Below, piece after piece: positions 2,053 through 62,986 of a stretch of 64,000 nucleotides of DNA. Position 1 is the stretch's first letter. Every line of letters begins with the position of its first letter. This DNA comes from Candidatus Uhrbacteria bacterium (GTDB lineage: Bacteria; Patescibacteriota; Patescibacteriia; UBA9934): contig CAWGHH010000002.1 in assembly GCA_963822405.1 (NCBI GenBank), positions 107,703 to 171,702 on the forward strand, read 5' to 3'. The notes below the pieces were generated by a model. It was not told the DNA's origin, made no database searches, and saw nothing but the letters and a program-made list of their open reading frames with translations. Made by a program: the position numbers and the translations under genes.

Positions 2053-3645
2053 ATGGATTCTCCCAATTCGGGTCGACCACGGCCGGTTGTACTTTTCGTC
2101 ATTGATGGTTTTGGTATTGCCCCTGATTCTGAAGGAAATGCGGTTACCAGAGCCAAGAAGCCTACTTTTGACATGTTGACTAGTCGTTATCCCGTAATGA
2201 CATTGCGAGCGTCGAGTGAGGAAGTCGGCCTTTCGTGGGGCGAGATGGGAAATTCGGAGGTTGGACACTTGGCTATTGGAGCTGGTCGAGTCTATTATCA
2301 AACTTTGCCAAGAATTAACAAAGCCGTATTAGACGGTTCTTTTGCGTCTAACCCAGCGCTTGCTAAAGCGATCTCGACGGTCAAAGCAAGCGGAGGCACT
2401 TTGCATCTCCTTGGTCTCGTGTCGAGCGGCAAAGTGCACTCGTACGACGATCATTGTTACGCCCTTTTGCGAATGTGTAAGGAGGCCGGCATTAAAAAAG
2501 TGGCGGTTCACGCAATCCTTGACGGTCGGGACACACTCTATAATTCGGGCATCGACTTCATTAAAAGCCTTGACGCAAAGATGAAGGAATACGGGGTGGG
2601 CGAGATTGCCTCGCTCATGGGTCGTTACTACGCCATGGATCGTGACAACCGTTGGGATAGAGTTGAAAAAGCTTATAACGCTGTTGCTCTAGGCAAAGCT
2701 GAAAAAACGTCTGAGGATCCATTCGTCGCTATTCAGGAAAGCTACGCCAAAGAAGTCTACGACGAAGAATTTGTGCCAACGGTGATTACTAGGGGTAACA
2801 AGCCAGTGGCAACGGTCAATTCTGGTGACGCCGTTCTATTTTTCAACTTCAGACCAGACCGTTCGCGCGAATTAACTCGAGCATTCGTTCTTCCGGCCTT
2901 CGAAAAATTCACTCGTGAGTACATTAAGGATTTAGTCTTTGTGACGATGACGGATTATGAAAAGGGTTTGCCGGTAGATGTTGCCTTTCCGCCAATTGTT
3001 ATTCAGAATACTTTGGCCGAGGTGGTGTCTACTGCTGGCTTGGTTCAGCTGCATATTGCGGAGACCGAGAAATACGCGCACGTCACTTTCTTCATGAACG
3101 GTACGCGTGAGGAGCCTTTTCCAAATGAGGATCGAGCTCTCATTCCTTCGCCCCATGTAGCGAGTTATGACACCGTGCCGGAGATGAGCGCGTTCGCGGT
3201 AACTGATCGGGTCATTGCTGAAATTGAGCGGGGGAATTACGACGTGATTATCGGCAACTTCGCAAATCCTGACATGGTTGGTCATACTGGAAACCTTGAG
3301 GCGACTATTAAGGGTGTTGAGGCAGTTGATACTTGTATAGGTAGAATTGTCGAGTCTGTACTGAAACACAACGGCGTTCTGCTTATTACAGCTGATCACG
3401 GAAACGCCGAAGAAGTTCTGAACCTCCAGACGCACGCCATGGATAAAGAACACAGTACAAATCCTGTTCCATTCTTTATCATTGGCAACCAGTTTGAGGG
3501 CAAGCCGTCTATTGCCGGTGACGTGCCAAATGGTGACCTCTCGCTCATGCCACCCGTTGGCATGCTGGCTGACGTCGCGCCAACCGTCCTAGCCATTCTT
3601 GGCCTCCCACAGCCGCCGGATATGACGGGAACGCCATTACTCTAA
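2053..3645 (+). CDS. gpmI: 2,3-bisphosphoglycerate-independent phosphoglycerate mutase
   Basis: 530 aa. N-terminus VVLFVIDGFGIAP and metal-site motif MGNSEVGHLAIGAGRV are characteristic of iPGM. Full-length protein. Confidence 0.9.
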   Translation: MDSPNSGRPRPVVLFVIDGFGIAPDSEGNAVTRAKKPTFDMLTSRYPVMTLRASSEEVGLSWGEMGNSEVGHLAIGAGRVYYQTLPRINKAVLDGSFASNPALAKAISTVKASGGTLHLLGLVSSGKVHSYDDHCYALLRMCKEAGIKKVAVHAILDGRDTLYNSGIDFIKSLDAKMKEYGVGEIASLMGRYYAMDRDNRWDRVEKAYNAVALGKAEKTSEDPFVAIQESYAKEVYDEEFVPTVITRGNKPVATVNSGDAVLFFNFRPDRSRELTRAFVLPAFEKFTREYIKDLVFVTMTDYEKGLPVDVAFPPIVIQNTLAEVVSTAGLVQLHIAETEKYAHVTFFMNGTREEPFPNEDRALIPSPHVASYDTVPEMSAFAVTDRVIAEIERGNYDVIIGNFANPDMVGHTGNLEATIKGVEAVDTCIGRIVESVLKHNGVLLITADHGNAEEVLNLQTHAMDKEHSTNPVPFFIIGNQFEGKPSIAGDVPNGDLSLMPPVGMLADVAPTVLAILGLPQPPDMTGTPLL

Positions 3646-3660
3646 TGTCACCGTCGGCTA

Positions 3661-3775
3661 GAGGAGGTAGAGGATATAGAGGCTCGCCCGTAGGGCTACG
3701 CCCGAGGGATGGAATGGATTCTTTAAAGAATTGGATCAATCCTCTCTCTCCTCTATCTCCTCATGCCGGCATTTT
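3661..3775. repeat. GC-rich palindromic intergenic element, copy A, occupying the leader of cca
   Basis: Arm gaggaggtagaggatatagagg; core ctcgcccgtagggctacgcccgag; an AT palindrome attctttaaagaat; inverted arm cctctctctcctctatctcctc; then the perfect palindrome atgccggcat, just before ATG 3776. Near-identical copies at 33883-33945 and 56733-56760. Confidence 0.6.
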
Positions 3776-5218
3776 ATGATGTCTCTCGACTCCATTTTAC
3801 AGACTGCTATTGGACGACTGGCTCACAAGGTGCCCAGGGCTCTTTTGGTTGGCGGGGCGGTTCGCGACTTGTTGCTCGGCGTGCCGACGAATGATGCTGA
3901 TGTAGAGGTCTACGGTATTAAGCCTGACGCGCTCGAAAAGATTTTGCGTGAACTGTTTACGCGGGTTGACGTCGTAGGTGCGTCGTTCGGCGTGTACAAA
4001 GTTACGCTCGACGAAGGCCGAATGCTCGACGTGGCCATTCCTCGAACCGAATCAAAAACCGGCAAAGGACATAAGGGTTTTGAAGTTATTGGTAACCCTT
4101 CGCTTGAAGTTGTCGAGGCCTTGCGTCGACGTGATTTTACGATCAACGCGATAGGCATGGATGCGTCAACGGGCGAGATCATTGATCCTTATAATGGTCG
4201 AGCTGACCTGGCCGACAAGTTATTGCGCGTGGTCGACGAGCGGACATTTGTCGAGGATCCTCTTCGGGTTTTTCGCGGTATCCAGTTTGTTGCGCGTTTT
4301 GGTTTGAAGGTCGAGCCGAAAACTTTCGCCCTCATGAAACAAATGGTCGAAAACGGCGATCTCGACGAGTTGTCAAAAGAACGCGTGACCGACGAATGGA
4401 AGAAATTACTTTTAAAATCGTCTTGTCCATCAACTGGCCTCTCAATGATGCGAGAGCTTGGCATTATTTCCCATTACTATCCCGAACTCGCCGCTTTAAT
4501 CAACACGCCACAGGAAAAAGATTGGCACCCAGAGGGGGACGTTTGGATTCATACGCTTTTGGTCGTCGACGAGTGTGTTCGAATTGGTGCGCAGTTTCCC
4601 CCTTCCAGGGGGATAAAGGGGGTCGAGAACCTCGTCGCGATGTTGGGGGCGTTGTGTCACGACCTCGGCAAACCTCTCGTCACGAAAATAATTGACGGCA
4701 AAATTCGCGCTCTCGGACATGAGGAGGCGGGTGTTGAACCGACAAAATCTTTTCTTAAAAGATTTACTTTTGGCGATGACGTTACTCATGACGTCGCTGC
4801 GATTGTTCCCAATCACCTCAAGCCAACGACACTTTATCGGTCCTTTCAAAAAGGCGAGCTAAACGAAAGGCAGTACGCTAACGCCGTTCGTCGTTTGCTA
4901 AAACGCCTCGGTGGCGTCCCGCTTGATATCTTCCTTGCAGTGACTGAGGCAGACACTCGTGGTCGGGGTTCGGCGAGTGACGTGGGTGAATACGAACCCG
5001 GCGCGTTCATGCGACAAATAATTACAAAGAATGATCTCGAAGTCGCCGCTAAGACTCCACTCGTCACCGGCGCGGAACTCATTGCCGAATTTGGTCTCGT
5101 CGAAGGGCCGAAGATTGGGGAAGTCATGAAAGCTGTCGAAGCTGCACGAGACGAAGGGGAAATTGAGACTCGTGATCAAGCGATTCGTTTTATAGAAAAT
5201 TATTTTTCCGCCCAATAA
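3776..5218 (+). CDS. cca: CCA tRNA nucleotidyltransferase (poly(A) polymerase head domain plus HD domain)
   Basis: N-terminus GGAVRDLLLG...NDADVEV is the NTase motif. An HD domain follows (HTLLVVDE...CHDLGKP). The tabulated ORF starts at 3731, but that start lies inside the repeat element; the in-frame ATG at 3776 (MMSLDS...) is more likely. Confidence 0.85.
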   Translation: MMSLDSILQTAIGRLAHKVPRALLVGGAVRDLLLGVPTNDADVEVYGIKPDALEKILRELFTRVDVVGASFGVYKVTLDEGRMLDVAIPRTESKTGKGHKGFEVIGNPSLEVVEALRRRDFTINAIGMDASTGEIIDPYNGRADLADKLLRVVDERTFVEDPLRVFRGIQFVARFGLKVEPKTFALMKQMVENGDLDELSKERVTDEWKKLLLKSSCPSTGLSMMRELGIISHYYPELAALINTPQEKDWHPEGDVWIHTLLVVDECVRIGAQFPPSRGIKGVENLVAMLGALCHDLGKPLVTKIIDGKIRALGHEEAGVEPTKSFLKRFTFGDDVTHDVAAIVPNHLKPTTLYRSFQKGELNERQYANAVRRLLKRLGGVPLDIFLAVTEADTRGRGSASDVGEYEPGAFMRQIITKNDLEVAAKTPLVTGAELIAEFGLVEGPKIGEVMKAVEAARDEGEIETRDQAIRFIENYFSAQ

Positions 5219-5704: not shown

Positions 5705-6205
5705 ATGAAGTACTTCTTTGATGTTCGTGTAAGCGAGAAGATTCAGGCGTGGGGGAAGCCGCAATATAATATGTGGTACGTGTTTGCGGTTCATTTAATG
5801 TATGTTTACATTGCGAGTTGGATAATTTTTAGTGCGCTTGGTTGGCTGGTTTGGTGGACGGTGCCGGTCGTGGCGTTTTCAGCGTGGATTTTGACGTTGG
5901 GTACGCAGGTCATTGTGGCACGGGAGCGACCGAAATTCGAATCGACTACCGGGTATAAAATGTGGTGGAAGACTTACTCGTTGCCGAGCGGGCATGCGAC
6001 AATCTCCGCGGCCATAGCGACGGTGTTGCTTTTGACGACGCATTTTCCAAATTCAATTTGGTTGGTTGTTTTGGCGGTCGTTTATCTGATCATCGAAGTG
6101 CTAGTTGCTATCGGTCGAATCGTGGTCGGGGTGCATTATTTGGCTGACGTAATTGTCGGGTTTGTGCTGGGGATTGCGTTTGGGGTAATGTGGTCGGTGT
6201 TATGA
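5705..6205 (+). CDS. PAP2-family membrane phosphatase (undecaprenyl-diphosphatase / phosphatidate phosphatase type)
   Basis: 166 aa with several TM segments. PAP2 signature present: RERP...PSGH...GRIVVGVHYLADV (K/R-x6-RP, PSGH, SR-x5-H-x3-D). Confidence 0.75.
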   Translation: MKYFFDVRVSEKIQAWGKPQYNMWYVFAVHLMYVYIASWIIFSALGWLVWWTVPVVAFSAWILTLGTQVIVARERPKFESTTGYKMWWKTYSLPSGHATISAAIATVLLLTTHFPNSIWLVVLAVVYLIIEVLVAIGRIVVGVHYLADVIVGFVLGIAFGVMWSVL

Positions 6206-6936: not shown

Positions 6937-6941
6937 TGGCT

Positions 6942-7308
6942 TCCACCCCGACGCCAGGAGGGGTCGCTTCCAGTATTCTATGGATGATCAAACATGCGGG
7001 GTATACATAATGGCTAACGATGGCAACCGGGTGATTTATGTTGGCATGAGCACGATGTTGCCGGAGCGCATTCAATCTCATAAAGACAAAATGATAGAGG
7101 GTTTTACGAAAAAATATAATTGTACCCGTTTGGTGTATTACGAAATTGTTCCGGATCGAGATTCGGCTCTTTATAGGGAGAAGGAGCTAAAGGGCTGGTC
7201 TAGAATGAAAAAGGCTGCACTAATTACTTCGACCAATCACGACTGGAAAGATTTGTTCGAAGAACTTATCATGCTCGCGTAGGAGCGACCCCTCCTGGCG
7301 TCGGGGTG
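6942..7308 (+). mobile_element. GIY-YIG nuclease gene (CDS 6980-7282) bracketed by a perfect 25-bp inverted repeat
   Basis: ccaccccgacgccaggaggggtcgc at 6944-6968 is the reverse complement of gcgacccctcctggcgtcggggtgg at 7286-7310. The left arm starts 6 nt after the upstream stop and the right arm 3 nt after the GIY-YIG stop. The 100-aa ORF carries GVYIMANDGNRVIYVGMSTMLPERIQSHKD (GIY-YIG / YhbQ-like). Confidence 0.6.
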
Positions 7309-7349
7309 GGAGAGAATCCGGATAGCATTAATGCCAATCGACAATCCAT

Positions 7350-13719: not shown

Positions 13720-13741
13720 TACGCAAGTATAGTTTTAATGA

Positions 13742-13770
13742 GACGGAGCCTCATGGCTTCGTCTTTTTAT
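13742..13770 (+). terminator. Rho-independent terminator after pilA
   Basis: gacggagcc tcat ggcttcgtc forms a stem with one G-T wobble, followed by ttttt. Confidence 0.55.
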
Positions 13771-15937: not shown

Positions 15938-16373
15938 TTTATCCTGAAGAGATTCTTTTATAGGAGAAAAATTTCTGAGGATCTGATCATGAAAGTATTG
16001 GTCCCCGAGCGTAGGCGAGGGGCCTAGAGGTGGTGGATTGGATATGAGAAATAGGGTCAGGTCGGGGGATGGGAATTTGTCTTTCTTGGTGGGCGAGTAC
16101 TCTCTTCGTGGGCGCGAAGACGTCTATCGAAAACCGTTGAGCTGTGTTAAACCCCGCAGGGTGCCTCGGTGAGATGAAAATAGAACGGAGCTGATGCTTC
16201 TAGTGGCTTCGAGATAACAATTTAATTTTCTACAAACGGTCCTCCAGGTGTACACTTGCGGTACACCAATTCGTAGGTGCCATAAGGAACACATGGTTCT
16301 TCTTCTTATTTCGTTATTTCGCATCGCATTGAAATCCTTCTCATAATATAAGAATCACTTCAGGGTTAGCACT

Positions 16374-16604
16374 ATGGATACACTTTTTATCGGCATTAAG
16401 GAATTTCGCCAGAACATGGCCAAGGTCACTCAGGACGCTCTTGATAACAAAAGACGCATTATTATTCTCCGTAAGAACGAACCAATTTTTGAGCTCATCC
16501 CTCTCTCAAAGAAAGACCGCGAATGTTGGAAATTCGAAATAGATTATAAGGACGAAGGTCGCACTACCTCCTGGATGAAACCTCACAAACCGTCACTCCA
16601 TTGA
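16374..16604 (+). CDS. Phd/YefM-family antitoxin-like protein (orphan)
   Basis: 76 aa. N-terminal pattern IKEFRQNMAKVTQDALDNKRRIIILRKNEPIFELIPL fits the Phd/YefM fold signature. No toxin ORF is adjacent. Confidence 0.4.
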   Translation: MDTLFIGIKEFRQNMAKVTQDALDNKRRIIILRKNEPIFELIPLSKKDRECWKFEIDYKDEGRTTSWMKPHKPSLH

Positions 16605-16658
16605 ATGGTCACATCCTTCCTTTTAAAAGAATCACGATCAGAGTAAACTCTTCGCATT

Positions 16659-21764: not shown

Positions 21765-21802
21765 GATTCTAGATAAAACAGCACTCCGAAAGGGGTGCTG
21801 TT

Positions 21803-27096: not shown

Positions 27097-27189
27097 AGTC
27101 GATTTCTCGTTCAGTCATCCTGAGCTTCGCGAAGGATCTGATTGGATAACTCCCATAATCTTGATGAATATACGCTATACTATTCGCAT

Positions 27190-32733: not shown

Positions 32734-32853
32734 GTGGATAACGATGTGCGTCTTACCCCCCCTGGTATGATTGTCACATGTATCGGCTTCGTCATTGCGA
32801 GGGTGTCGTCCGACGACAGCCCGAAGCAACCTAATAAATAATTTAATCGCATT

Positions 32854-33576: not shown

Positions 33577-33869
33577 AGTTTCTCATTTTTACGTTACTTG
33601 CTGAACTGCCTGTCGCTTTGTTGTTACTCCAAAAGGAGGACTGGCGACAGGTTTGTTTGGTTGTTCTTGGCGTCAACATGATTTCGCATCCAATAGTTTG
33701 GCAGTTAATTTTTTTCCATCAATTAAACTGGTTTGTGGCCGAGTTCGGGGTAGCTGCTTTCGAGGGTCTCGTCTTCGCCGCTGTATTCAAAAACCGACGA
33801 CTGTTAGCCGGTATTGTTGCTGTGGCGATGAACGTCTTTTCAGCTGCTATTGGATACATATTCTTTTGA
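33525..33869 (+). CDS. Small hypothetical membrane protein
   Basis: 114 aa with 3 hydrophobic helices. Overlaps the previous gene in another frame. Weak support. Confidence 0.3.
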   Translation: MYGRMCPRDRYQNMEEVKFLIFTLLAELPVALLLLQKEDWRQVCLVVLGVNMISHPIVWQLIFFHQLNWFVAEFGVAAFEGLVFAAVFKNRRLLAGIVAVAMNVFSAAIGYIFF

Positions 33870-33882
33870 TCTCCTTCCTTCC

Positions 33883-33945
33883 GTCGGGCGTAGCCCTACA
33901 GGCGAGCCTCTATCTCCTCTATTTCCTCATGTCGGCATTGGGTGT
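33883..33945. repeat. GC-rich palindromic intergenic element, copy B (reverse orientation of the core), abutting the start codon at 33961
   Basis: ccgtcgggcgtagccctacaggcgagcctctatctcctctatttcctcatgtcggcatt. Its reverse complement matches 3661-3709 at 43 of 48 positions. The tail ctctatttcctcatgtcggcatt matches 3753-3775 at 21 of 23. Confidence 0.6.
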
Positions 33946-33960
33946 TAAGATACTCTCACT

Positions 33961-34536
33961 ATGAGCAACGAAGTCGTCTTGGACATTGAAACGCAGAATA
34001 CTTTTGATGAAGTTGGCGGATATTTTACGGATAAACTTAAGGTTTCATTGGTTGGCGTGTACTTTTACGAAACTGATACTTACGAGTCATTCCTGGAGCC
34101 AGATTTGCCAAAGCTATTTGCAAGACTTGAAAAGTCTGGTCGAATTATTGGCTACAATTCAATTGGTTTCGATATGCCGGTACTGAATAATTACTACACG
34201 GGCGATCTTTTGAATTTGCCCCAGCTCGACATGCTTGCTCACATCAACAAAGCACTTGGCTATCGAATTAAACTAGACGCTGTAGGTCATGCAACTGTTG
34301 GCATCGAAAAGTCCGCTCATGGTTTGCAGGCAGTTGCTTGGTGGAAAGAGGGGAACATTGATGCTATCCGCGAGTATTGTTTGCAGGACGTGAAAGTGAC
34401 CAAAGAAGTGTACGAATTCGGCAAAAAGAACGGCTACTTGTTGTTCGACGACCGCAAAGGTGAACGCCAAGCCATCCCAATCAACTTTGCCGAAGTAAAA
34501 CCAACGACGACGGTTAATATGACCCTTGGATTTTAA
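33961..34536 (+). CDS. 3'-5' exonuclease, DEDD (DnaQ-like) superfamily
   Basis: Exo I VVLDIETQN, Exo II IGYNSIGFDMPVL, Exo III YCLQDVKVT (Y-x3-D). Confidence 0.5.
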   Translation: MSNEVVLDIETQNTFDEVGGYFTDKLKVSLVGVYFYETDTYESFLEPDLPKLFARLEKSGRIIGYNSIGFDMPVLNNYYTGDLLNLPQLDMLAHINKALGYRIKLDAVGHATVGIEKSAHGLQAVAWWKEGNIDAIREYCLQDVKVTKEVYEFGKKNGYLLFDDRKGERQAIPINFAEVKPTTTVNMTLGF

Positions 34537-44241: not shown

Positions 44242-44262
44242 CAAATAATCAACAGAGACAGG

Positions 44263-44296
44263 CAAAAGTTGACTTCCGGTCAACTTTTGTGTATAT
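44263..44296 (+). terminator. Rho-independent terminator after murF
   Basis: Perfect 11-bp stem caaaagttgac / gtcaacttttg with a ttccg loop, followed by tgtatattt. Confidence 0.6.
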
Positions 44297-44622
44297 TTGG
44301 AACTGGTCTGCCGGACCGGGAAACGAACGTCTCACTGATTGCTTCAGGCAATCCCAAAGTCATCAAGCTGACGGCAAAAAGGTACAAAAGCGGGCGGGGA
44401 CCATGTACCTTCCAGCTGTGATGTGCCCGTGTGGGGACGGGTCGTTGTTGGGCTGAGCCGTTGAGGTTCGCCTGATAAGACTAGGAGTCGTGGGACTTAT
44501 TTCTCGCCCGGCAGGCCTCATTTTTACTCACTCGTGTTTCTTCGCTTATATTCCCCCTTCCAGGCTTTCCTGGAGGGGGGTTTGCTTTTGGCTAAAATTA
44601 GCTATGAAACGCCATTTTCGGC

Positions 44623-44651
44623 TTGACAAAAGTCGATTTTTTTGCTATGAT
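44623..44651 (+). promoter_or_regulatory. Consensus sigma70-type promoter with no downstream ORF
   Basis: TTGACA at 44623-44628, a 17-nt spacer (aaagtcgattttttttgc), then TATGAT at 44646-44651. Nothing coding follows on the + strand before the convergent glmS. Confidence 0.5.
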
Positions 44652-44657
44652 AGAAAG

Positions 44658-45047
44658 GTTACTTTGGAGGTTGAGATGCTCTTATGTTGATATGCCGTCG
44701 CTGACGGCTTCGAGTGTCCATCGGCACTCCTCCCTACGGGGAACCCACCGATGGCCGGCCCCCGCATCTGAGGATATGCGAGATATGCCGGGTTGAATCC
44801 TCGCCGCTATTTAACTCTGTGTTCGCCGCAATGAGAGGACGAACAAAACCCCGACTGATCAAGTCGCTGGAGGAAGTCCACTAACCAAATAACGAGTTCA
44901 GCGGATTTCTCACTAATCCGTGGGACGTCGCCAACACGTCCCGTCCAAATTGGCACGCCGAAGCTGTACCGACGAACACGGGAGTCGCGCCCCGAGTCAG
45001 CACGTGAACCCGCCCCATCCCTTGAGATGGTGGCGGGTTTTCATTTT
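44658..45047 (+). ncRNA. Candidate structured ncRNA (~390 nt) of unknown class
   Basis: Bounded upstream by the consensus promoter and at 45009-45047 by a stem cccgcc(c)catc ... gatggtggcggg plus ttttcatttt. Internal hairpins include gccgtcgctgacggc, cgcatctgaggatatgcg, gggacgtcgccaacacgtccc and the long-range pair ccatcgg...ccgatgg. No credible ORF. Could not be matched to RNase P, tmRNA, SRP or glmS-ribozyme consensus by eye. Confidence 0.3.
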
Positions 45048-45109
45048 GCTTAGAATTGGTTCGCTTCTCCCTCTCCTCGAAGAGGAGAGGGTCGGGGTGA
45101 GGATCAGGG

Positions 45110-47378: not shown

Positions 47379-48314
47379 CTAATGACTAAGGTTGGACACG
47401 TCTCCCGTTAGGTTGTTGATGTCGCCTTCAAGGTGGCTGACGTCGCCCTTAATGTTCGTGACGTCGCCATTGATGTAGGTGACCGTACCCCTGATGTTCG
47501 TTGTATCTCCGTAGAGGTACATCACGTAACCAGAGATGTTCGTCACGTTGCCACGCAGGTTTCCAATGCTACCGCCGAGGTCGCCCACGTCGCCAGAGAT
47601 GTTCGTGACTTTTCCCTTGATGTTCGTGACGTCGCCAGAGATGTTTGTTGCGTCACCGTGAATGTTCGTCGCATCGCCAGAGATGTTCGTCACGTTGCCA
47701 CGCAGGTATTCAACGTTACCTTTGAGATCGCTGACGTTGCCCCTGATGTTCGTCACGTTGCCGTTGATGTTGCTGACGTCACCAGAGACCTGTGTCACGT
47801 GTCCGAAGATAACGCCTGCAAAGCCCGAGATGTTGGTTACGTTGCCTCCCAGGTTCCCAACGTCGCCACTGAGGCCGCTGACGTTGCCCCTGATATTCGT
47901 CGTGTCGCCGGTGATGTTGGTGACGTCGCCGGTGATTTTCGTCGCATCACCGTAGATGTTCGTCGTATCGCCGGTGATATTCGTCACGTTGCCCCGCAGG
48001 TGTTCAACGTTGCCTTTGAGACCGCTTACGTCGCCCGTGATGTTCTTGACGGTGCCGTAGATGTTAGTGACGTCACCCGAGAGTTGTGACACATCTCCGT
48101 AAATACTGCCTGCGTTTCCGCAGACATGGGACATGTCACCGCGGATGTTGGGTGTGACCCCGCGGAGGGTACACGCCTTAGTGGACGTAGCCGGCGCGGA
48201 CGGGGCGGCAACCGTGGCCTCGGGCATGTTGCTCGTGGGCGCAGAGGTCGCCTTAGGCGTCTCGCCCCCACAGGCAACAAGCGAAAGGAGAAACAGCAAG
48301 CTGAAGGAACGCAT
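47379..48314 (-). CDS. Lipoprotein built from 37 uninterrupted heptapeptide repeats ([DN]-V-[ST]-N-[IL]-x-G)
   Basis: Start placed at MRSFSLLFLLSLVACGG (ATG at 48314; strong SD ggggagg 7 nt upstream; lipobox LVAC). A Pro/Ala/Thr linker follows. From ~residue 52 to the C-terminus every 7th residue is Gly (TPNIRG DMSHVCG ... DVTNITG DTTNIYG DATKITG ... DVSNLSH). The repeats are also visible at DNA level. Confidence 0.65.
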   Translation of the reverse strand: MRSFSLLFLLSLVACGGETPKATSAPTSNMPEATVAAPSAPATSTKACTLRGVTPNIRGDMSHVCGNAGSIYGDVSQLSGDVTNIYGTVKNITGDVSGLKGNVEHLRGNVTNITGDTTNIYGDATKITGDVTNITGDTTNIRGNVSGLSGDVGNLGGNVTNISGFAGVIFGHVTQVSGDVSNINGNVTNIRGNVSDLKGNVEYLRGNVTNISGDATNIHGDATNISGDVTNIKGKVTNISGDVGDLGGSIGNLRGNVTNISGYVMYLYGDTTNIRGTVTYINGDVTNIKGDVSHLEGDINNLTGDVSNLSH

Positions 48315-53512: not shown

Positions 53513-55405
53513 ATGGACGCTAAAGAGGAGATAAAACAGAAGCTCGACATTGCTGAGGTGATTGCCGAGTATGTGACGCTCAAGCCAGCTGGCTCGGGCG
53601 CTTTTAAGGGTTTGTGCCCGTTTCATGCTGAGCGCTCGCCGAGCTTTCATGTTTCTCGTGAGCGACAAATTTTTAAGTGTTTTGGTTGTGACAAGGGCGG
53701 GGACGTATTTTCTTTTGTCATGGAGATGGAGGGTTTAACTTTTATAGACGCACTCAAGATGCTGGCTCGTCGTGCGGGTGTCGACCTTCCTGAATACAAA
53801 CCAACCGAAGCGGGGAATAGAGCCGACGTGATTTACAAGATTCATGAAGAGGCCACAAAGTTTTATGAATCGGTGCTGGCCGAGTCTTCGTTGACGGGCA
53901 TTACTAGAAATTATTTACTTTCTCGCAAACTGACGCCGGCTATTCAGTTGAAGTTTCGTTTGGGTGCGTCAACTAATGATTGGGATGCACTCGCCCTTCA
54001 TTTGCAGAGGAAAGGTTTTGCCGAGGGACCACTTGTTGAGAGCGGTTTGTGCCACAAGCGAAAGAACGGCACGGGACTGATCGATAGATTCCGCAATCGC
54101 ATGATGGTGCCATTGTGTGATCCGAATGGTCGAGTCGTCGGGTTCACTGCTCGAATATTGCCAGGAGGACTTCCAGATGAAGCGAAGTACATAAACTCAC
54201 CGGAAACGCCGATCTATCATAAGGGCGCAGTGCTCTACGGTTTGCATTTAGCTAAAGGTGGAATTCGAAAAGCCGGTGAGGTTATTATTGTCGAGGGCAA
54301 CCTTGACGTCATTGCGTCCCACATGGCTGGGGTCGAAAATGTTGTTGCTAGTTCTGGCACCGCGCTCACCGAAACTCAACTTCGAACTTTATTCCGCTAT
54401 ACGAAGCGACTGGTATTTTGTTTGGACGACGATGCCGCCGGATTTGCCGCAGCCAAGCGCGTGTTTGCTCTTGCACTCGAGATTCAAAAGAAAGAGCCGA
54501 CACTCGATGTGTCGATTAGATGTCTGGTGATTCCGACCGGAGCCGGGAAGGATCCGGACGATGTAGTTCGAAAGGACCCCGAGCTCTGGAAGAACATTGC
54601 CGCTCATTCCATTGAGATCGTCGAGTATTATTTCGAAAAAACTCTTCGAGTATTCAATGACAAACAAGATGTGAGTGTCGAGGCCCGTCGTCGGCTGGTC
54701 GACGAGCTCCTACCGCAAGTCGCATTACTCGCCCGTGAGGACGAGCGCCACTTGTATTTCATGCGCCTTTCAGACGCCACTCACGTCAGCGTCGATATTT
54801 TGAAGACAATGGCTCAGGGTTATCAAGTGGTCAAAACCTTCCCCGATAAATCCGCTCCAAATAGAATCGCAAGTACGGGTTTGGCGGCGCCAAACTCCTA
54901 TCGCCAACCGAACGCAATTCCTCCCGATCTCGACAAACCTACCCAGGCCGCCGTGTTTCTTCTGGGTGTTTGCTTCAAGTACGAGAAAGCTGCCGGCGAG
55001 ATTCTGGCGCGCGTTCCAAAGGAGATTCTGAATGATCCTTGGAAGTCACTTTACACTCATGTTGAGGTAGTATATAATTCCGCGCAAACGCAACTAAGTG
55101 CCGCACCAATAAAGCCATCGCTTTTTTCACGACTACGCGCCCATCTCGAGAGTGTGAACGCGCCCGAGCTCCTAACCGTGCTCGACGCCCTTGCGCTCAA
55201 GATAGACGAGATGCTGGCCCGTCTGCCGCCAAAAGACGTGCGTGCCGAAGTTGATAGACATCTTATTCTATTTAAGGACGAGCGAGAGAAATCCCGCCGG
55301 AAGGCACTTGAGGCAGAGATCCGCGAAGCAGAAATCGCCGGAGATAATGCCCGCCTAACCGAGCTCATGGATAACTACGCTCTCTTACTGCACCCCCGCG
55401 AATAA
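53513..55405 (+). CDS. dnaG: DNA primase
   Basis: CHC2 zinc finger [34 protein letters not shown], a TOPRIM domain ([13 protein letters not shown]...DDDAAG), and a C-terminal helical domain. Confidence 0.9.
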
Positions 55406-56700: not shown

Positions 56701-56795
56701 GATATAGCCCGCCTCCCGGTTCCTGAGCGAAGGTTCGCCCGTAGGGGCTACGCTCGAGGAACCTAGAGGTGGGTTATTGAGTTGTTCCCATTTTG
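56701..56795. repeat. GC-rich palindromic intergenic element, copy C variant, in the leader of the Bro-N gene
   Basis: ggttcctgagcg...aaggttcgcccgtaggggctacgctcgaggaacc contains the cgcccgtagggGctacgc core inside a 12-bp inverted repeat. Then cctagaggtgg (also at 16016-16026) and hairpin gttccca tttt gggaac. Confidence 0.5.
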
Positions 56796-57655: not shown

Positions 57656-57660
57656 ACAAA

Positions 57661-57686
57661 AATCCACCATTACGGTGGATTTTTGT
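57661..57686. terminator. Bidirectional terminator between the convergent Bro-N gene and typA
   Basis: aaaaatccaccattacggtggatttttg: 8-bp stem tccaccat / ccgtggat (one mismatch), loop tacgg, with flanking A- and T-runs. Confidence 0.5.
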
Positions 57687-59705: not shown

Positions 59706-61691
59706 ATGAAGGTTCAATTGTTTGCACTCATGGGCCTGATGCTCATGGGATCGTGTGGCCCTGCCGGCGTGAGCCTGCAGGAAGACTCCGGCGACAGCGC
59801 CGTGTCGAGCGGCTTCTACGCGCTCGACGGGACCGAAGAAGCTCGCTTGAGCTGTAACGGTACGATCGAGGTCCACAACTTCGACCAGGACTCGTTCGGT
59901 CGGGAATACTGCGTGGCGCTCGGTACCTCGAGCCTCCCGTTCTTCGCGACCACCGTCGGCGACTGCAACGACGGCGACCCGCTCATCTACCCCGGCGCCC
60001 CAGACCCTACGGTCGATGGCGTCGATCAGAACTGCGACGACGTCGACGGCCCTTTGCAGAACGGAACCTTCTACAGGGACCTCGATGGCGACGGGTACGG
60101 CAAAGCGTCGAGCGGCACGAGCACGGTTCAGGGTACCGGCTTCGTGACGAGCAACACGGACTGCGATGACACGAGCAACCTCGATCACCCGAACGCGGCC
60201 GAGGCCTGCGACGGCATCGACAACGACTGCGACCACCTCGTGGACAACGGTGCGCCGGGGAGCGCGACGTGGTACGGGGACGCCGACAAGGACAACTACG
60301 GGATCTCCACGCAGACCGTGGTGGCGTGCATGAAGCCGGCGAACTACGCGGTTCAGGCCGGTGATTGCAAGGACGACGACATCACGATCCACCCCGGCGC
60401 GGCGGAAACCTGCGACGGCAAGGACAACAACTGCGACAACCTGGTGGACAACGGCGCAACGGGCGCCAGCACCTGGTACGCGGATGTGGACGGTGACACG
60501 GCCGGCAGTAGCGTGCACGGTACCGTCACGGCGTGCGCCCAGCCCCAGGGGTTCGCCGCGAGCAACAACGACTGCGACGACAACAACTTCGCGCGGACGC
60601 CCGGCAAGACCGAGGTCTGCGACGCCATCGACAACGACTGCGACAACGTCGTGGACGAGGGCGCGGGCAGCGTGTACTTCGCGGACAAGGACGGCGATAC
60701 GATCGGCAGTTCGGTGTACGGCACCACCACGGCGTGCGCCCAGCCCACGGGGTACGTCACGACGAGCACCGATTGCGACGACAACAACTTCGCGCGGACG
60801 CCCGGCAAGGCCGAGATCTGCGACGGCGTCGACAACAACTGCAACGGTGTCGTGGATGATGGTGCGACTGGCATCATCATCTGGTACCTGGACGTGGACG
60901 GCGACAGCTACGGCGTGAACGGGCTCATCTCGAACGCCTGTGCCAAGCCGAGCAACTACGCCATCCAGGGCGGTGACTGCAACGACGCGAACGGAGCGAT
61001 CAAGCCCGGCGCGTCCGAGTCCTGCAACGGCGTGGACGACAACTGCAACGGGCAGGTCGACGAAACGTGCAACTCCGTCACCTACTACAAGGACAACGAC
61101 AACGACGGTCACGGGAGAGCGAGTAGCGGAACGAGCACCTCTTCGGGCAACGGGTTCGTCACGAGCAGTGATGACTGCAACGACGGCGACGCCCAGACCT
61201 ACCCCGGCGCGCCTGAGACCCGGGTCAACGTCGACAGCAACTGCGACGGCACGGCTTACACCGGCTCGAACAGCGGTTCGTGTCCGACCGGCCAGAGCAA
61301 GTTTGCGGGTTCGTTCGTCGGCTCGGGCACGGGAAACATCATCCTGTCCGATTCGTACTTCGACATCCGGGACACCGTGAACGGCGTCAACTACCTGCCT
61401 TGGGCTCACGTCAGCACCGGTACGCCTTCGGGCATGACGGTGTCGACGAGCGGCAACAAGGTGACGTTCGCGTATGACGTGTGTCTGCCGGACACCGTGA
61501 TCAAGACGGTGTCGTTTACCTACTACTACTCGAACGACTCCCAGGTTCGCTACAGCTGTGAAGGCGGCGCGAACAACACGCCGACGAACTTCACTGGCGT
61601 GTGGACCATGACGAGCGACGGCTTCTCGACCCCCGTGTCGAAGGCGCTCAGCGGAAACCCCGTGACGGGCTGCGTCGGCACCTACTACTAG
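59706..61691 (+). CDS. Secreted Cys-rich repeat protein with seven 'putative metal-binding' (Myxococcus MopE-type) motifs; compositionally foreign (~65% GC)
   Basis: Start MKVQLFALMGLMLMGSCGP with SD aaggagga. Seven repeats of DC[DNK]D....[YH]PGA.E.CDG.DN[DN]C[DN]..VD[DE]G. These alternate with WY.D.DGD.[YI]G loops (WYGDADKDNYG, WYADVDGDTAG, YFADKDGDTIG, WYLDVDGDSYG, YYKDNDNDGHG). GC content is visibly far above the flanks. A 714-aa antisense ORF (59634-61778) is a high-GC shadow. Confidence 0.7.
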   Translation: MKVQLFALMGLMLMGSCGPAGVSLQEDSGDSAVSSGFYALDGTEEARLSCNGTIEVHNFDQDSFGREYCVALGTSSLPFFATTVGDCNDGDPLIYPGAPDPTVDGVDQNCDDVDGPLQNGTFYRDLDGDGYGKASSGTSTVQGTGFVTSNTDCDDTSNLDHPNAAEACDGIDNDCDHLVDNGAPGSATWYGDADKDNYGISTQTVVACMKPANYAVQAGDCKDDDITIHPGAAETCDGKDNNCDNLVDNGATGASTWYADVDGDTAGSSVHGTVTACAQPQGFAASNNDCDDNNFARTPGKTEVCDAIDNDCDNVVDEGAGSVYFADKDGDTIGSSVYGTTTACAQPTGYVTTSTDCDDNNFARTPGKAEICDGVDNNCNGVVDDGATGIIIWYLDVDGDSYGVNGLISNACAKPSNYAIQGGDCNDANGAIKPGASESCNGVDDNCNGQVDETCNSVTYYKDNDNDGHGRASSGTSTSSGNGFVTSSDDCNDGDAQTYPGAPETRVNVDSNCDGTAYTGSNSGSCPTGQSKFAGSFVGSGTGNIILSDSYFDIRDTVNGVNYLPWAHVSTGTPSGMTVSTSGNKVTFAYDVCLPDTVIKTVSFTYYYSNDSQVRYSCEGGANNTPTNFTGVWTMTSDGFSTPVSKALSGNPVTGCVGTYY

Positions 61692-61780
61692 GTGAATGGG
61701 TGAGTCGGTGACTCTTGGGCGCCTTTGGACTTCGGTCCAGGGGCGCCTTTTACTATGTTGTGATAATCTGTTCGGCATCT

Positions 61781-62986
61781 ATGCGACATAAACACGTTCT
61801 TCCTTCTTTTGCAGACTTATCACAAGACATTGCTGGCGAGATTCCGGTAGGGATTATTGAGGACTGGATTCAGAGCGACGGTAGTGAAGAATCGCACGCC
61901 AAAATTTTGAAACCCTTCGAACGCCAAGGGACTTTTGTTTCTTCGGACTCTGCGGGACTGTCTAAACTATCACTCGGCAAGTCATTGATCGAGGTCATGA
62001 AGCTAGTCAGCCAACCAAAAGAAATTATTCACGCTTTTGGCAAAGCTATTGGCGGGCAGGCGATTGGTGTTTGGATTGCGGACAATACGCAGATGTTCTA
62101 TCCGTCGAGTGTTCCAGTCGAAGATGTAGTCGGTCAGATGCTCGCTGTGCAAGCTGAGGCGTCGAGGTGCCTCGTTAAAGTTGGACTCGGCATACATACT
62201 GGTGTGGCATATGAAATCGGCGGAGGATTATATGGGGCAGATGCTGATAGCGTCGAGCATGTGACCGAAGAGGATTCTAAGGCGGGGGAGGTTATGGTTT
62301 CGGCGGAAGTGAAGAAGGTTATAGGTGATAAGTGGAAGGTTAGGACAGAGCGTGAAGGCTATTTTGTGCTCGAACAACCAACGGAAGCGTTGCCGGTGAA
62401 GGCTGGCAATGATATTCGTTATCCGGCGCCTTTTGACGGTAAGTTTTTCGACGAACTTCAAGCTCTTGACCTAAATAACAAGCAAATGGTAGAGGCGCTC
62501 GAACAGGCTCGTCTACAAGCTAGAACGGTAGTTCTCATTCGAGTTTTTCATACTCACGAGGAATTGCTTTTGAATACACTCGTTAAAGGAGTCGCGACAA
62601 ACTCGCTCATGAATAATGTGTTGAAACGATACGACTGCAATCTCATTAACATGAATGGCAGCATCATGATTGTAACGCTTGAGCAATCTGCTGAAGCTGT
62701 AGATTTAGCGCTCGCTCTGCATGAAGCGACTCGAAAAAATGAATTGACTGCTAACGTTTCAGTAGTAGCTGGCGAGGTATTAATCTTCGATCTTGGCCAA
62801 GGCAAAGAGCAAATTGCTGGTTCACCGGTGAATGTTGCATCAAAGCTCGCGGAAGATACTGATGAACGTAACGCCTTATTCCTTGAGTCGTCAGTGATCG
62901 AGCACGCGCCTCAACACGGATTGCAAATGCCATTTACTGTGGTGAAGTCGGGAGTTACATTATCTGGAATTCGGGTAACTTTTTAG
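61781..62986 (+). CDS. Hypothetical protein
   Basis: ~400 aa from MRHKHV. GC content returns to the window norm. No motif recognised. Confidence 0.4.
   Translation: MRHKHVLPSFADLSQDIAGEIPVGIIEDWIQSDGSEESHAKILKPFERQGTFVSSDSAGLSKLSLGKSLIEVMKLVSQPKEIIHAFGKAIGGQAIGVWIADNTQMFYPSSVPVEDVVGQMLAVQAEASRCLVKVGLGIHTGVAYEIGGGLYGADADSVEHVTEEDSKAGEVMVSAEVKKVIGDKWKVRTEREGYFVLEQPTEALPVKAGNDIRYPAPFDGKFFDELQALDLNNKQMVEALEQARLQARTVVLIRVFHTHEELLLNTLVKGVATNSLMNNVLKRYDCNLINMNGSIMIVTLEQSAEAVDLALALHEATRKNELTANVSVVAGEVLIFDLGQGKEQIAGSPVNVASKLAEDTDERNALFLESSVIEHAPQHGLQMPFTVVKSGVTLSGIRVTF

Follow-up and report, generated by a model that had tools for sequence, protein, structure and literature searches.

The closest known kind of the element described here, a 27-nucleotide (nt) palindromic block that recurs in a 64,000-nt stretch of DNA from a Candidatus Uhrbacteria bacterium (the window; contig CAWGHH010000002.1, positions 107,703 to 171,702), is the superfamily of repetitive extragenic palindromes (REPs), and the intragenic REP in particular. 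REPs are tagged palindromes of 20 to 40 bp that lie mostly downstream of open reading frames (ORFs) and form dimers and mosaics (Di Nocera et al. 2013, PMC3733652). The tag is an unpaired GTAG or CGTC/TGTC/CCTC at one end of the stem-loop; the CGTC families, of which CCTC is a listed variant, have stems that open with two A/T pairs and carry a CCA tail, and REPs of the CGTC type lack a dedicated transposase (PMC3733652). Many REP families are limited to one species, genus or order, and intragenic REPs form a minority class that is concentrated in uvrA, uvrB, polA and recBCD and in genes for tRNA synthetases and pseudouridine synthases (PMC3733652).

From the copies collected in this study we conclude, with a probability of about 70%, that the 27-nt block, hereafter called the mini-element, and the palindromes that harbor it are nested selfish palindromic repeats of a REP-like nature and not a dedicated regulator. 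Insertion, nesting in other palindromes, in-frame copies within genes and polymorphism for presence or absence at one and the same site were all observed.

The mini-element is a discrete block of 26 to 27 nt, GGCTCGCCCGTAGGGCTACGCCCGAGG, which was followed by a G in 36 of the first 37 copies. In an alignment of these 37 copies, the block consisted of GGCT, a 21-mer and GGG, with 92 to 100% conservation at positions −4 to +3 and background conservation in the flanks. A 24-nt part, CTCG-CC-CGTA-GGGC-TACG-CC-CGAG, folds as ((((..((((....))))..)))) with −6.7 kcal/mol, which is no better than shuffled sequences (z −0.4), and the core alone is thus a weak palindrome. A first-pass annotation of the window had described a family of GC-rich palindromic intergenic elements with a common core; the core is indeed discrete, and its similarity between copies is above chance (0 matches to the 21-mer are expected from shuffles), but its palindromic character is weak when it stands by itself. 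In one related contig (L003, 13088-13140) a stretch of 17 nt interrupts the core at its center, and TAGGG is repeated on either side of it (GCTCGCCCGTAGGG-ACTGATAGATGTACT-TAGGGCTACGCCCGAG); this may reflect an insertion within the mini-element or a form of it with an enlarged loop.

The distribution of the core was determined by an exact search for the 21-mer, with C or T allowed at one position, in one genome per prokaryotic species (185,579 genomes). About two dozen reference genomes contained the 21-mer, in 35 stretches altogether, and the record titles name Parcubacteria, Saccharibacteria, Nomurabacteria, Staskawiczbacteria, Paceibacterota and others. A few of the records are labeled Edwardsbacteria, Gammaproteobacteria or a Diapherotrites archaeon, labels being given here as in the records; one 'Gammaproteobacteria' contig encodes a coupling protein that is 58% identical to that of a Patescibacteria metagenome-assembled genome (MAG). 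A scan of metagenomes yielded 109 further stretches with the exact 21-mer, and the flanks of the copies were unrelated. Most of the stretches from both sources belong to Patescibacteria. For the core, the earlier proposal of elements specific to the lineage of the window is therefore wrong. No real match to the core was obtained among viral contigs (IMG/VR), phage records and plasmid records. In terms of exact copies, a single reference genome (JBAZWW01) contained as many as 10 and the others 1 or 2. The window has three copies, two of them with base changes.

When 119 non-redundant copies were sorted by context, 42 were located in ORFs, 28 in other hairpins, 9 next to tRNA genes and 40 in other contexts. 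A copy was assigned to the ORF class if its frame ran without a stop through 60 codons or more to either side, and to the nested class if its flanks were mutually complementary. All nine tRNA-adjacent copies had the same orientation, with the mature tRNA 5′ end lying 2 to 3 nt inside the terminal GGG. The elements had initially been regarded as intergenic, but the 42 copies in ORFs are in frame and occur in both orientations.

Within genes, the mini-element was found only in the four stop-free frames, which encode the peptides SPVGLRPR, LARRATPE, LGRSPTGE and SGVALRAS. Among the genes carrying it are gatB, folA and an S-adenosylhomocysteine (SAH) hydrolase gene; by reading of conserved motifs, priA, ileS, valS, clpB, uvrA and genes for an RluD-like pseudouridine synthase, a penicillin-binding protein and a flavoprotein; and, according to Pfam, uvrB, which has two sites 99 nt apart, and a gene for a type IV secretion coupling protein. 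Comparison of GatB with the protein structure 3al0_B (PDB) revealed a gap of exactly 9 residues, and dihydrofolate reductase (DHFR), the folA product, with the insert reads FES|LGRSPTGEP|IGK. When the unit was deleted in silico, a long open frame was restored no more than twice among 117 cases, both times without the look of a gene. Since copies in genes are tolerated only in stop-free frames, we conclude that they are translated and neither spliced nor bypassed. Ribosomal bypass and splicing were rejected because genes contain no copies in the frames with stop codons and the insert is exactly 27 nt long.

The same codon was filled recurrently in orthologs of gatB, folA, priA, uvrA and uvrB. 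In the case of uvrB, both sites are occupied in frame in two loci (L048, positions 1834 and 1933; L074, positions 785 and 884), and one or the other site only in four (L095, L106, L114 and L116), suggesting independent gain or loss at each site. A tree for the analysis of gain and loss was built for folA, the evidence for gatB, priA, uvrA and uvrB being the pattern of recurrent sites. The 9-residue insert was present in 12 of 119 close DHFR homologs, and these carriers were scattered in a neighbor-joining tree constructed without the insert. Most of the nearest relatives of carriers, with identities of up to 93%, had no such insert, and mean identity was 76.3% between carriers and 76.9% between carriers and non-carriers. 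A single ancestral insertion in DHFR was rejected because the carriers are not each other's closest relatives; the folA site was hit or cleared more than once. Two pairs of filled and empty folA genes, selected by protein similarity and not by DNA pattern, were 88.8% and 84.3% identical, and in both the difference amounted to exactly 27 nt, at one and the same position. At its boundary the insert has a one-base (C/G) ambiguity, leaving no more than 1 nt of possible duplication. The inserts were identical at 26 to 27 of 27 positions between genes that are only 72 to 77% identical, and the single change, in P0125, is synonymous. As the inserts are far more alike than the genes, the copies must be much younger than the carrier genes or must have been homogenized. 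Decay by point mutation was also apparent, with two changes in copy B and three in copy C of the window, both described below, and the one synonymous change in P0125.

The most complex copy in the window, copy A (3653-3772, plus strand), lies in the spacer between gpmI, whose stop codon was located at 3645 by reading the spacer sequence, and cca, whose product has its closest public homologs exclusively in Patescibacteria (candidate phyla radiation, CPR). Judged by its sequence, its fold and a homolog in contig L018, it is a composite of a host palindrome of about 95 nt and a mini-element in the 5′ half of that host. The host begins with the left half of a closing stem, GTCGGC (3653-3658), which pairs with GCCGGC, followed by a purine-rich 5′ arm, GAGGAGGTAGAGGATATAGAGG (3661-3682), an inner imperfect palindrome identified by self-comparison and by a homologous stretch in L018, GGATGGAATGGATTC TTTAAA GAATTGGATCAATCC (3707-3742), a pyrimidine-rich 3′ arm, CCTCTCTCTCCTCTATCTCCTC (3741-3762), and the terminal sequence ATGCCGGCAT (3763-3772), which leaves 3 nt up to the cca start codon at 3776; all of these are on the plus strand, and both arms were found by an arm search. 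Three matches to the purine arm were present in the window versus 0 expected by chance. The mini-element is a perfect consensus copy; its 28-nt conserved block, GGCTCGCCCGTAGGGCTACGCCCGAGGG, with boundaries set from the 37 aligned copies, occupies 3681-3708 and includes the 24-nt quasi-palindrome CTCGCCCGTAGGGCTACGCCCGAG (CTCG..CGAG, 3683-3706) and the 21-mer (3685-3705). The copy A region was reproduced by an independent Logan assembly (L001). The species of the window is represented by a single 10-kb Logan contig and is absent from the reference-genome scan, and a look-up of its exact gpmI protein gave no record.

The first-pass annotation had proposed that the arms of copy A are mutual reverse complements, and by manual count the purine arm agrees with the reverse complement of 3741-3762 at 19 of 22 positions. 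It had further predicted one long hairpin, and the RNA of 3653-3770 was indeed folded as a single long hairpin with −61.1 kcal/mol (z −3.88), a value reached by none of 200 shuffled sequences; the opposite strand folds about equally well. From the end of the hairpin to the ATG at 3776 the distance is 5 nt, and not the 1 nt originally stated for the cca start. This start was assigned from the ORF and a homolog; two ATGs follow each other at 3776 and 3779, and the public homolog P0001 is called from the position equal to 3779. No Shine-Dalgarno sequence is present between hairpin and ATG. The GAGGAGG of the purine arm was considered for this role and rejected because it is located about 100 nt upstream and is paired within the hairpin; neighboring genes likewise have no obvious Shine-Dalgarno sequence.

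The host palindrome of copy A also exists without the mini-element. In the MAG JBAZWW01, whose cca is 72% identical to that of the window, a core-free palindrome of the arm type (L018, about 5960-6040) lies upstream of nrdB, the gene for the small subunit of ribonucleotide reductase, and has the layout GACGGCA GAGGAGGGAGAGGAGGTAGAGG ATTGAATAAATTCTTTAAAGAATATTCCAA CCTCTCCTTCCTCACTC. When copy A is compared with L018, the mini-element sits between the arm and the inner palindrome.

The remaining sites in the window differ from copy A in what surrounds the core. Copy B (33870-33938, minus strand), recognized by self-comparison and core search, is half of the host element of A with a mini-element that has two substitutions, and consists of the arm, ATGTCGGCAT and a tail GGAAGGAAGG that abuts the stop codon of the upstream ORF. 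Its 21-mer is located at 33884-33904 on the minus strand, and 33875-33928 matches the reverse complement of 3661-3714 over 54 nt with 89% identity. The near-identical piece previously noted at 33883-33945 was thereby confirmed and extended to 33870-33938, the right end, TCCTCATGTCGGCAT, agreeing with the right terminus of A. The fold of copy B is no better than that of shuffled sequence (z +1.57).

Copy C (56705-56777, plus strand; fold z −6.84), downstream of a sigma-70 gene, is a different host hairpin of the TAGAGGTGG family with the layout GGTTCCTGAGCGAAGG[diverged core]GGAACC-TAGAGGTGGG. The second piece called near-identical, at 56733-56760, does contain a real core (56734-56758), but this core is diverged, with three differences including one extra G, and belongs to another host than A. 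Filled hosts homologous to copy C were found in L020, L033/L053, L059 and L144. At site D (16000-16033, plus strand) the TAGAGGTGG-family host, with the sequence GGTCCCCGAGCGTAGGCGAGGGGCCTAGAGGTGG and the layout GGTCCCCGAGCGTAGGCGAGGGGCC-TAGAGGTGG, is empty when compared with the filled L059. The fragment at 15995-16030 that had been listed as related has no core and shares with copy C only CCTAGAGGTGG, which taken alone is near chance, as 12 of 100 shuffles give at least 2 matches; its relationship holds for the host part, which agrees with that of filled elements elsewhere, such as L059 with GACCCTGAGCGTAGGCGAAGG[core]GGGGTCTAGAGGTGG or, by family, GACCCTGAGCGTAGGCGAAGG[core]GGGGTC-TAGAGGTGG. 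The TAGAGGTGG host is thus known both empty (D) and filled (C, L059).

Nesting was not confined to these two hosts. A third hairpin family, known from JBAZWW, is filled in L017, L025 and L039 and empty in the gpmI-cca spacer of L003. In activated-sludge and other metagenomes the core resides in yet another palindrome, CCTTCTCCCC-NNN-GGGGAGAAGG[core]GGGTG.AGGATGAGGGG (L043, L052, L058, L067, L070, L090, L105, L110, L115, L117, L127, L134 and others), at times with two or three copies on one contig. In the spacer orthologous to that of copy B, with flanking proteins 76% and 94% identical, the core is present in the opposite orientation within a different host hairpin. Strong hairpins (z −3.9 to −5.3) also fill the gpmI-cca spacer in each of four relatives, whose cca genes are 72 to 86% identical, and their sequences are mutually unrelated. 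Two further hairpin modules were seen in the window at 27097-27141 (GTCATCCTGAGC..GAAGGATCTGA) and 32790-32840 (GTCATTGCGAGG..CGAAGCAAC), and modules of these types also build the hairpins in the gpmI-cca spacers of L003 and L004. Several families of small palindromic modules are combined as mosaics in this genome.

The mini-element resembles REPs in several respects. It is a short GC-rich imperfect palindrome in the size range of 20 to 40 bp, able to form a stem-loop, though a weak one; it occurs singly, in tandem or nested with other hairpin modules, as in the bacterial interspersed mosaic elements (BIMEs) of Escherichia coli; when intergenic, it lies mostly 3′ of co-directional ORFs; and a minority of copies is in frame in the same classes of genes (uvrA, uvrB, aminoacyl-tRNA synthetase and pseudouridine synthase genes). 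As in REPs of the CGTC type, no dedicated transposase adjoins it. In contrast to REPs, its stem consists of 4+4 bp with a CC/CC mismatch, and GTAG is central and not an unpaired terminal tag: GTAG and CTAC form the inner stem, although the reverse strand does begin with CCTC, the listed CGTC variant. Of the features of the CGTC families, the two A/T pairs that open the stem and the CCA tail are missing, its exact sequence is common to many candidate-phylum labels, and it precisely abuts tRNA 5′ ends. With 42 of 119 copies in ORFs, its location is not predominantly extragenic. The initial description as REP/MITE-like (MITE, miniature inverted-repeat transposable element) named the right general class, although the 27-nt core departs, or may depart, from several REP features and is too small for a MITE.

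Other small palindromes share its behavior. RPE-1 and its relatives, the Rickettsia palindromic elements (RPEs), were reportedly described by Ogata and coworkers in 2000. RPEs are selfish palindromes of small, host-dependent genomes that sit in frame in housekeeping protein and RNA genes and are translated as surface segments; RPE-1 is about 100 to 150 bp long, and RPEs are confined to Rickettsia. Insertion in frame into conserved genes, with insert-free homologs, was likewise found here (the gap in GatB; 12 carriers among 119 DHFRs). The mini-element differs in its size of 27 nt, in its spread across Patescibacteria lineages and in showing no sequence relation to RPEs, and since sequence and size are unrelated the resemblance is behavioral only. 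Mobile GC clusters of yeast and fungal mitochondrial DNA and the 'byp' inserts of Magnusiomyces are also short GC-rich palindromes which invade compact, AT-richer genomes, nest, and occur inside coding sequence, and the byps of Magnusiomyces are skipped by the ribosome. They belong to another domain of life and have unrelated sequences, and the absence of stop-frame copies together with the strict 27-nt length indicates normal translation in the present case.

MITEs measure 50 to 500 bp and have a short non-coding body between terminal inverted repeats. The arm-type host of about 95 nt, with its 22-nt arms and closing stems, is like a MITE in being non-coding and dispersed (A, B and one copy in JBAZWW), whereas the 27-nt core is far below MITE size. 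No consistent direct repeat flanks copy A, copy B or the L018 copy, and no parent insertion sequence (IS) with matching ends was found. Like elements of the IS200/IS605 family, from which palindrome-associated elements (PATEs) derive, the mini-element is inserted strand-specifically without clear target duplication; a Y1 transposase was likewise not found, and no target-site duplication could be defined. In the searchable literature there was no paper containing the core 13-mers or the four encoded peptides, none with peptide strings for the related GTCATCCTGAGC...GAAGGATC hairpins, and nothing linking Patescibacteria to REPs, MITEs or the REP-associated tyrosine transposases (RAYTs). As far as this literature shows, the 27-base element had not been described before.

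How the arrangement in the window probably arose can be outlined as follows. For copy A, a MITE-like palindrome of about 95 nt would first have landed in the gpmI-cca spacer, and a mini-element would then have inserted between its purine arm and inner palindrome; that A is such an invaded palindrome follows from the core being a discrete insert in genes of other genomes. Copy B would be a half copy of the A-type composite, and copy C an older insertion into the second host-hairpin family, of which site D would be the form without insert. The insertion sites of the mini-element are many and unrelated, with precise gain or loss at some of them: they include loops and shoulders of other hairpin repeats, positions just 5′ of mature tRNA ends and in-frame positions in housekeeping genes, where the insert is translated as 9 residues forming a loop. 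The orientation of the mini-element relative to the following G and to tRNA 5′ ends is fixed, and mobilization in trans by a nuclease or transposase that recognizes single strands or hairpins, REP-like, strand-specific and without target duplication, can be envisaged on the model put forward for REPs and IS200/IS605-type elements; the specific enzymatic route seems doubtful to us. Any effect on gpmI or cca would be a by-product of a stable RNA hairpin, acting as a 3′-end barrier or occluding the start region in the way suggested for REP/BIME elements, and such a side effect on their expression may exist.

Several observations weigh against the interpretation as REP-like selfish repeats. Perfect units are few per genome, 10 at most and three in the window, compared with tens to hundreds for classical REPs. 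No flanking gene of the HUH-Y1 type was present in about 150 loci, and clustering of the ORFs within 2.5 to 3 kb of about 150 copies revealed neither a transposase nor another recurrent mobility gene. A tblastn search with approximate probes for RAYT and the TnpA of IS608 gave no match with E < 0.4 in the 1.17 Mb searched. As no transposase or RAYT match was found near the copies, the mechanism of mobility remains a proposal. The same codon of several genes was hit repeatedly with no obvious common target sequence, a recurrence that ancient insertion followed by gene conversion, or strong constraint at the nucleotide level, could mimic. Outside ORFs, some comparisons, those of tRNA-Ala sites and of the JBAZWW host hairpins, point to a net insert of 26 and not 27 nt, so that the ends of the unit are approximate. 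Finally, every orthologous gpmI-cca spacer retains some strong hairpin, so that a hairpin could be functionally needed there; this constancy fits a hot spot for palindrome insertion and a loose need for any hairpin as a 3′ barrier of the transcript alike.

Apart from host genes, two neighbors of the mini-element recurred, namely genes for a coupling protein of type IV secretion (7 loci) and for a small GIY-YIG protein (6 loci). In L010, L025, L030, L034 and three metagenome loci, a TraG/VirD4-like coupling-protein gene contains the mini-element or is separated from it by no more than about 100 nt, and elements carrying coupling proteins are a possible vehicle for spread between lineages. At one orthologous tRNA-Ser site (L015, L022, L071, L084, L141) the GIY-YIG gene ends about 26 nt upstream of the mini-element, which in turn adjoins tRNA-Ser directly, an arrangement kept in 6 loci. 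Both neighbors, the coupling protein and the GIY-YIG nuclease, are leads only. Going further, we tentatively consider the possibility that the 27-mer is a currently active, horizontally spreading element and the shortest known invader of essential genes, moved by an undescribed mechanism without linked transposase, inserting strand-specifically next to G, exactly at the tRNA 5′ boundary and repeatedly at the same permissive codons of repair and translation genes, excised precisely and perhaps carried between Patescibacteria lineages on coupling-protein elements of type IV secretion systems.

One alternative to selfish repeats is that the elements serve as intrinsic terminators or 3′-end stabilizers of the upstream genes (gpmI, a 114-amino-acid [aa] ORF, rpoD and uvrD), their similarity arising because a suitable hairpin was used again. 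Each of the four sites A to D directly follows an ORF of the same direction, an ATTTTAT follows copy A and TTTTTCTCTTT follows the L018 homolog, and REPs elsewhere are mostly 3′ of ORFs and thought to stabilize mRNA (PMC3733652). We regard this explanation as unlikely. Scans for promoters and for terminators, that is, a GC-rich hairpin followed by a T run, gave none at A (3400-4000) and none at B on the coding strand (33700-34100), and copy B, as mentioned above, folds no better than shuffles. Canonical hairpin-plus-T-run terminators are present elsewhere in the window (13740-13770, 21777-21802 and 57656-57686), showing that the organism uses ordinary terminators, and the in-frame copies within genes would be left unexplained.

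The first-pass annotation had inferred from a location directly in 5′ leaders that the elements are cis-regulatory RNAs which influence how the downstream gene is translated or how stable its mRNA is; in the case of cca, they might occlude the start region. In favor of this view, the hairpin of copy A is very stable and close to the cca ATG with no intervening Shine-Dalgarno sequence, A, B and the L018 copy, all of the arm type, have their pyrimidine arm on the side of the downstream gene, and all four orthologous gpmI-cca spacers contain a strong hairpin. Three copies of the same orientation are, however, statistically meaningless, and the hairpins of the orthologous spacers are unrelated in sequence. 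The distance from the hairpin end to the next start codon varies (about 5 nt in A, 22 nt in B, 41 nt in C and more than 600 nt in D), the cores of A, B and C are on the plus, minus and plus strands while all flanking genes are on the plus strand, the host in L018 is located at nrdB, and the core occurs in ORFs and tRNA leaders of many genomes. A search of the whole window against Rfam 15 at gathering score detected nothing but one tRNA, a permissive scan of 3600-3820 only sub-threshold matches to microRNA precursors (best 21.9 bits versus a gathering score of 120), and a scan of 16 related loci only tRNAs. Placement in 5′ leaders is thus not a common property of the copies, no evidence for dedicated regulation of cca was obtained, and we consider a leader RNA quite unlikely.

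A further possibility is that the 27/28-mer is not mobile and is instead a selected DNA or RNA signal, such as the binding site of a conserved Patescibacteria protein or a site of the uptake or recombination type. This would account for near-perfect identity across hosts with genes only 72 to 77% identical, for recurrence at the same codon of gatB, folA, priA, uvrA and uvrB orthologs and for the strict orientation at tRNA 5′ ends (9 of 9). It is very unlikely in view of the comparison with empty alleles 84 to 89% identical, which shows insertion of a block of exactly 27 nt and not point substitution, and of the sporadic occurrence of exact copies in about two dozen of 185,579 reference species genomes; in addition, both orientations and four reading frames are used in genes, and copies decay (two changes in B, three in C, one synonymous in P0125). 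A dif/Xer-like 28-bp site was considered on account of the 11+6+11 layout, but symmetry of the arms is limited to 7 of 11 positions, and insertion is as a block.

That the 28-mer is an artefact (an adapter, a spike-in oligonucleotide or an assembly chimera), as might be thought from an identical short sequence in many projects, all on uncultured organisms, with none in cultured plasmids, phage records or IMG/VR, has a negligible probability and is effectively refuted by the in-frame and taxon-restricted pattern, since nine codons are always added in genes and the two stop-containing frames never used, the sequence is limited to one kind of organism, point variants exist, independent assemblies produced by different centers and assemblers agree in having the same site filled, and the copy in the window was seen again in L001.

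Further repeats were noted in the window. A 27-nt palindrome with a GGGTTTGGCGGCGCCAAACC core occurs twice in opposite orientation, 54.6 kb apart (244-270 and 54873-54899), the second copy lying inside a 630-aa ORF (53513-55405). A 100-aa ORF for a GIY-YIG nuclease (6980-7282, within 6937-7349) is located between 29-nt inverted repeats (6940-6968 and 7284-7312) that are 97% complementary and each contain the hairpin CCCCGACGCCAGGAGGGG. This unit of about 410 bp is absent from the orthologous junction between the nucleoside triphosphate (NTP)-transferase and YceG genes in L003, where the spacer is 4 nt, and it therefore looks like a separate small mobile cassette. Long tandem coding repeats are present in large ORFs, taken from ORF calls on both strands: four units of 147 nt at 47383-48113 (copies listed at 290 nt) and about six units of 200 nt with a Cys/Asp-rich C..D.DNDC pattern at 59942-61265. 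Three stretches of 720 to 870 nt (15938-16658, 44242-45109 and 61779-62553) have no long ORF and no Rfam family at gathering score, the rest of the window being tightly packed.

Patescibacteria have tiny, gene-dense genomes that are thought to be poor in repetitive DNA. Contrary to this picture, our results suggest that their spacers hold layered selfish palindromes. One 27-base unit, nearly unchanged across lineages, is translated within gatB, folA, uvrA, uvrB, priA and ileS, and its in-frame copies show which protein loops tolerate insertion. Inserts of 27 nt inflate the number of apparently 'lineage-specific' protein insertions and can be mistaken for regulatory RNAs, as in the case of the cca leader. 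With no linked transposase found, no clear target duplication and tRNA 5′ ends as targets, the mobilization of the unit is a puzzle. At the same time, the 27-mer is a sharp marker of recent DNA exchange among uncultured lineages.

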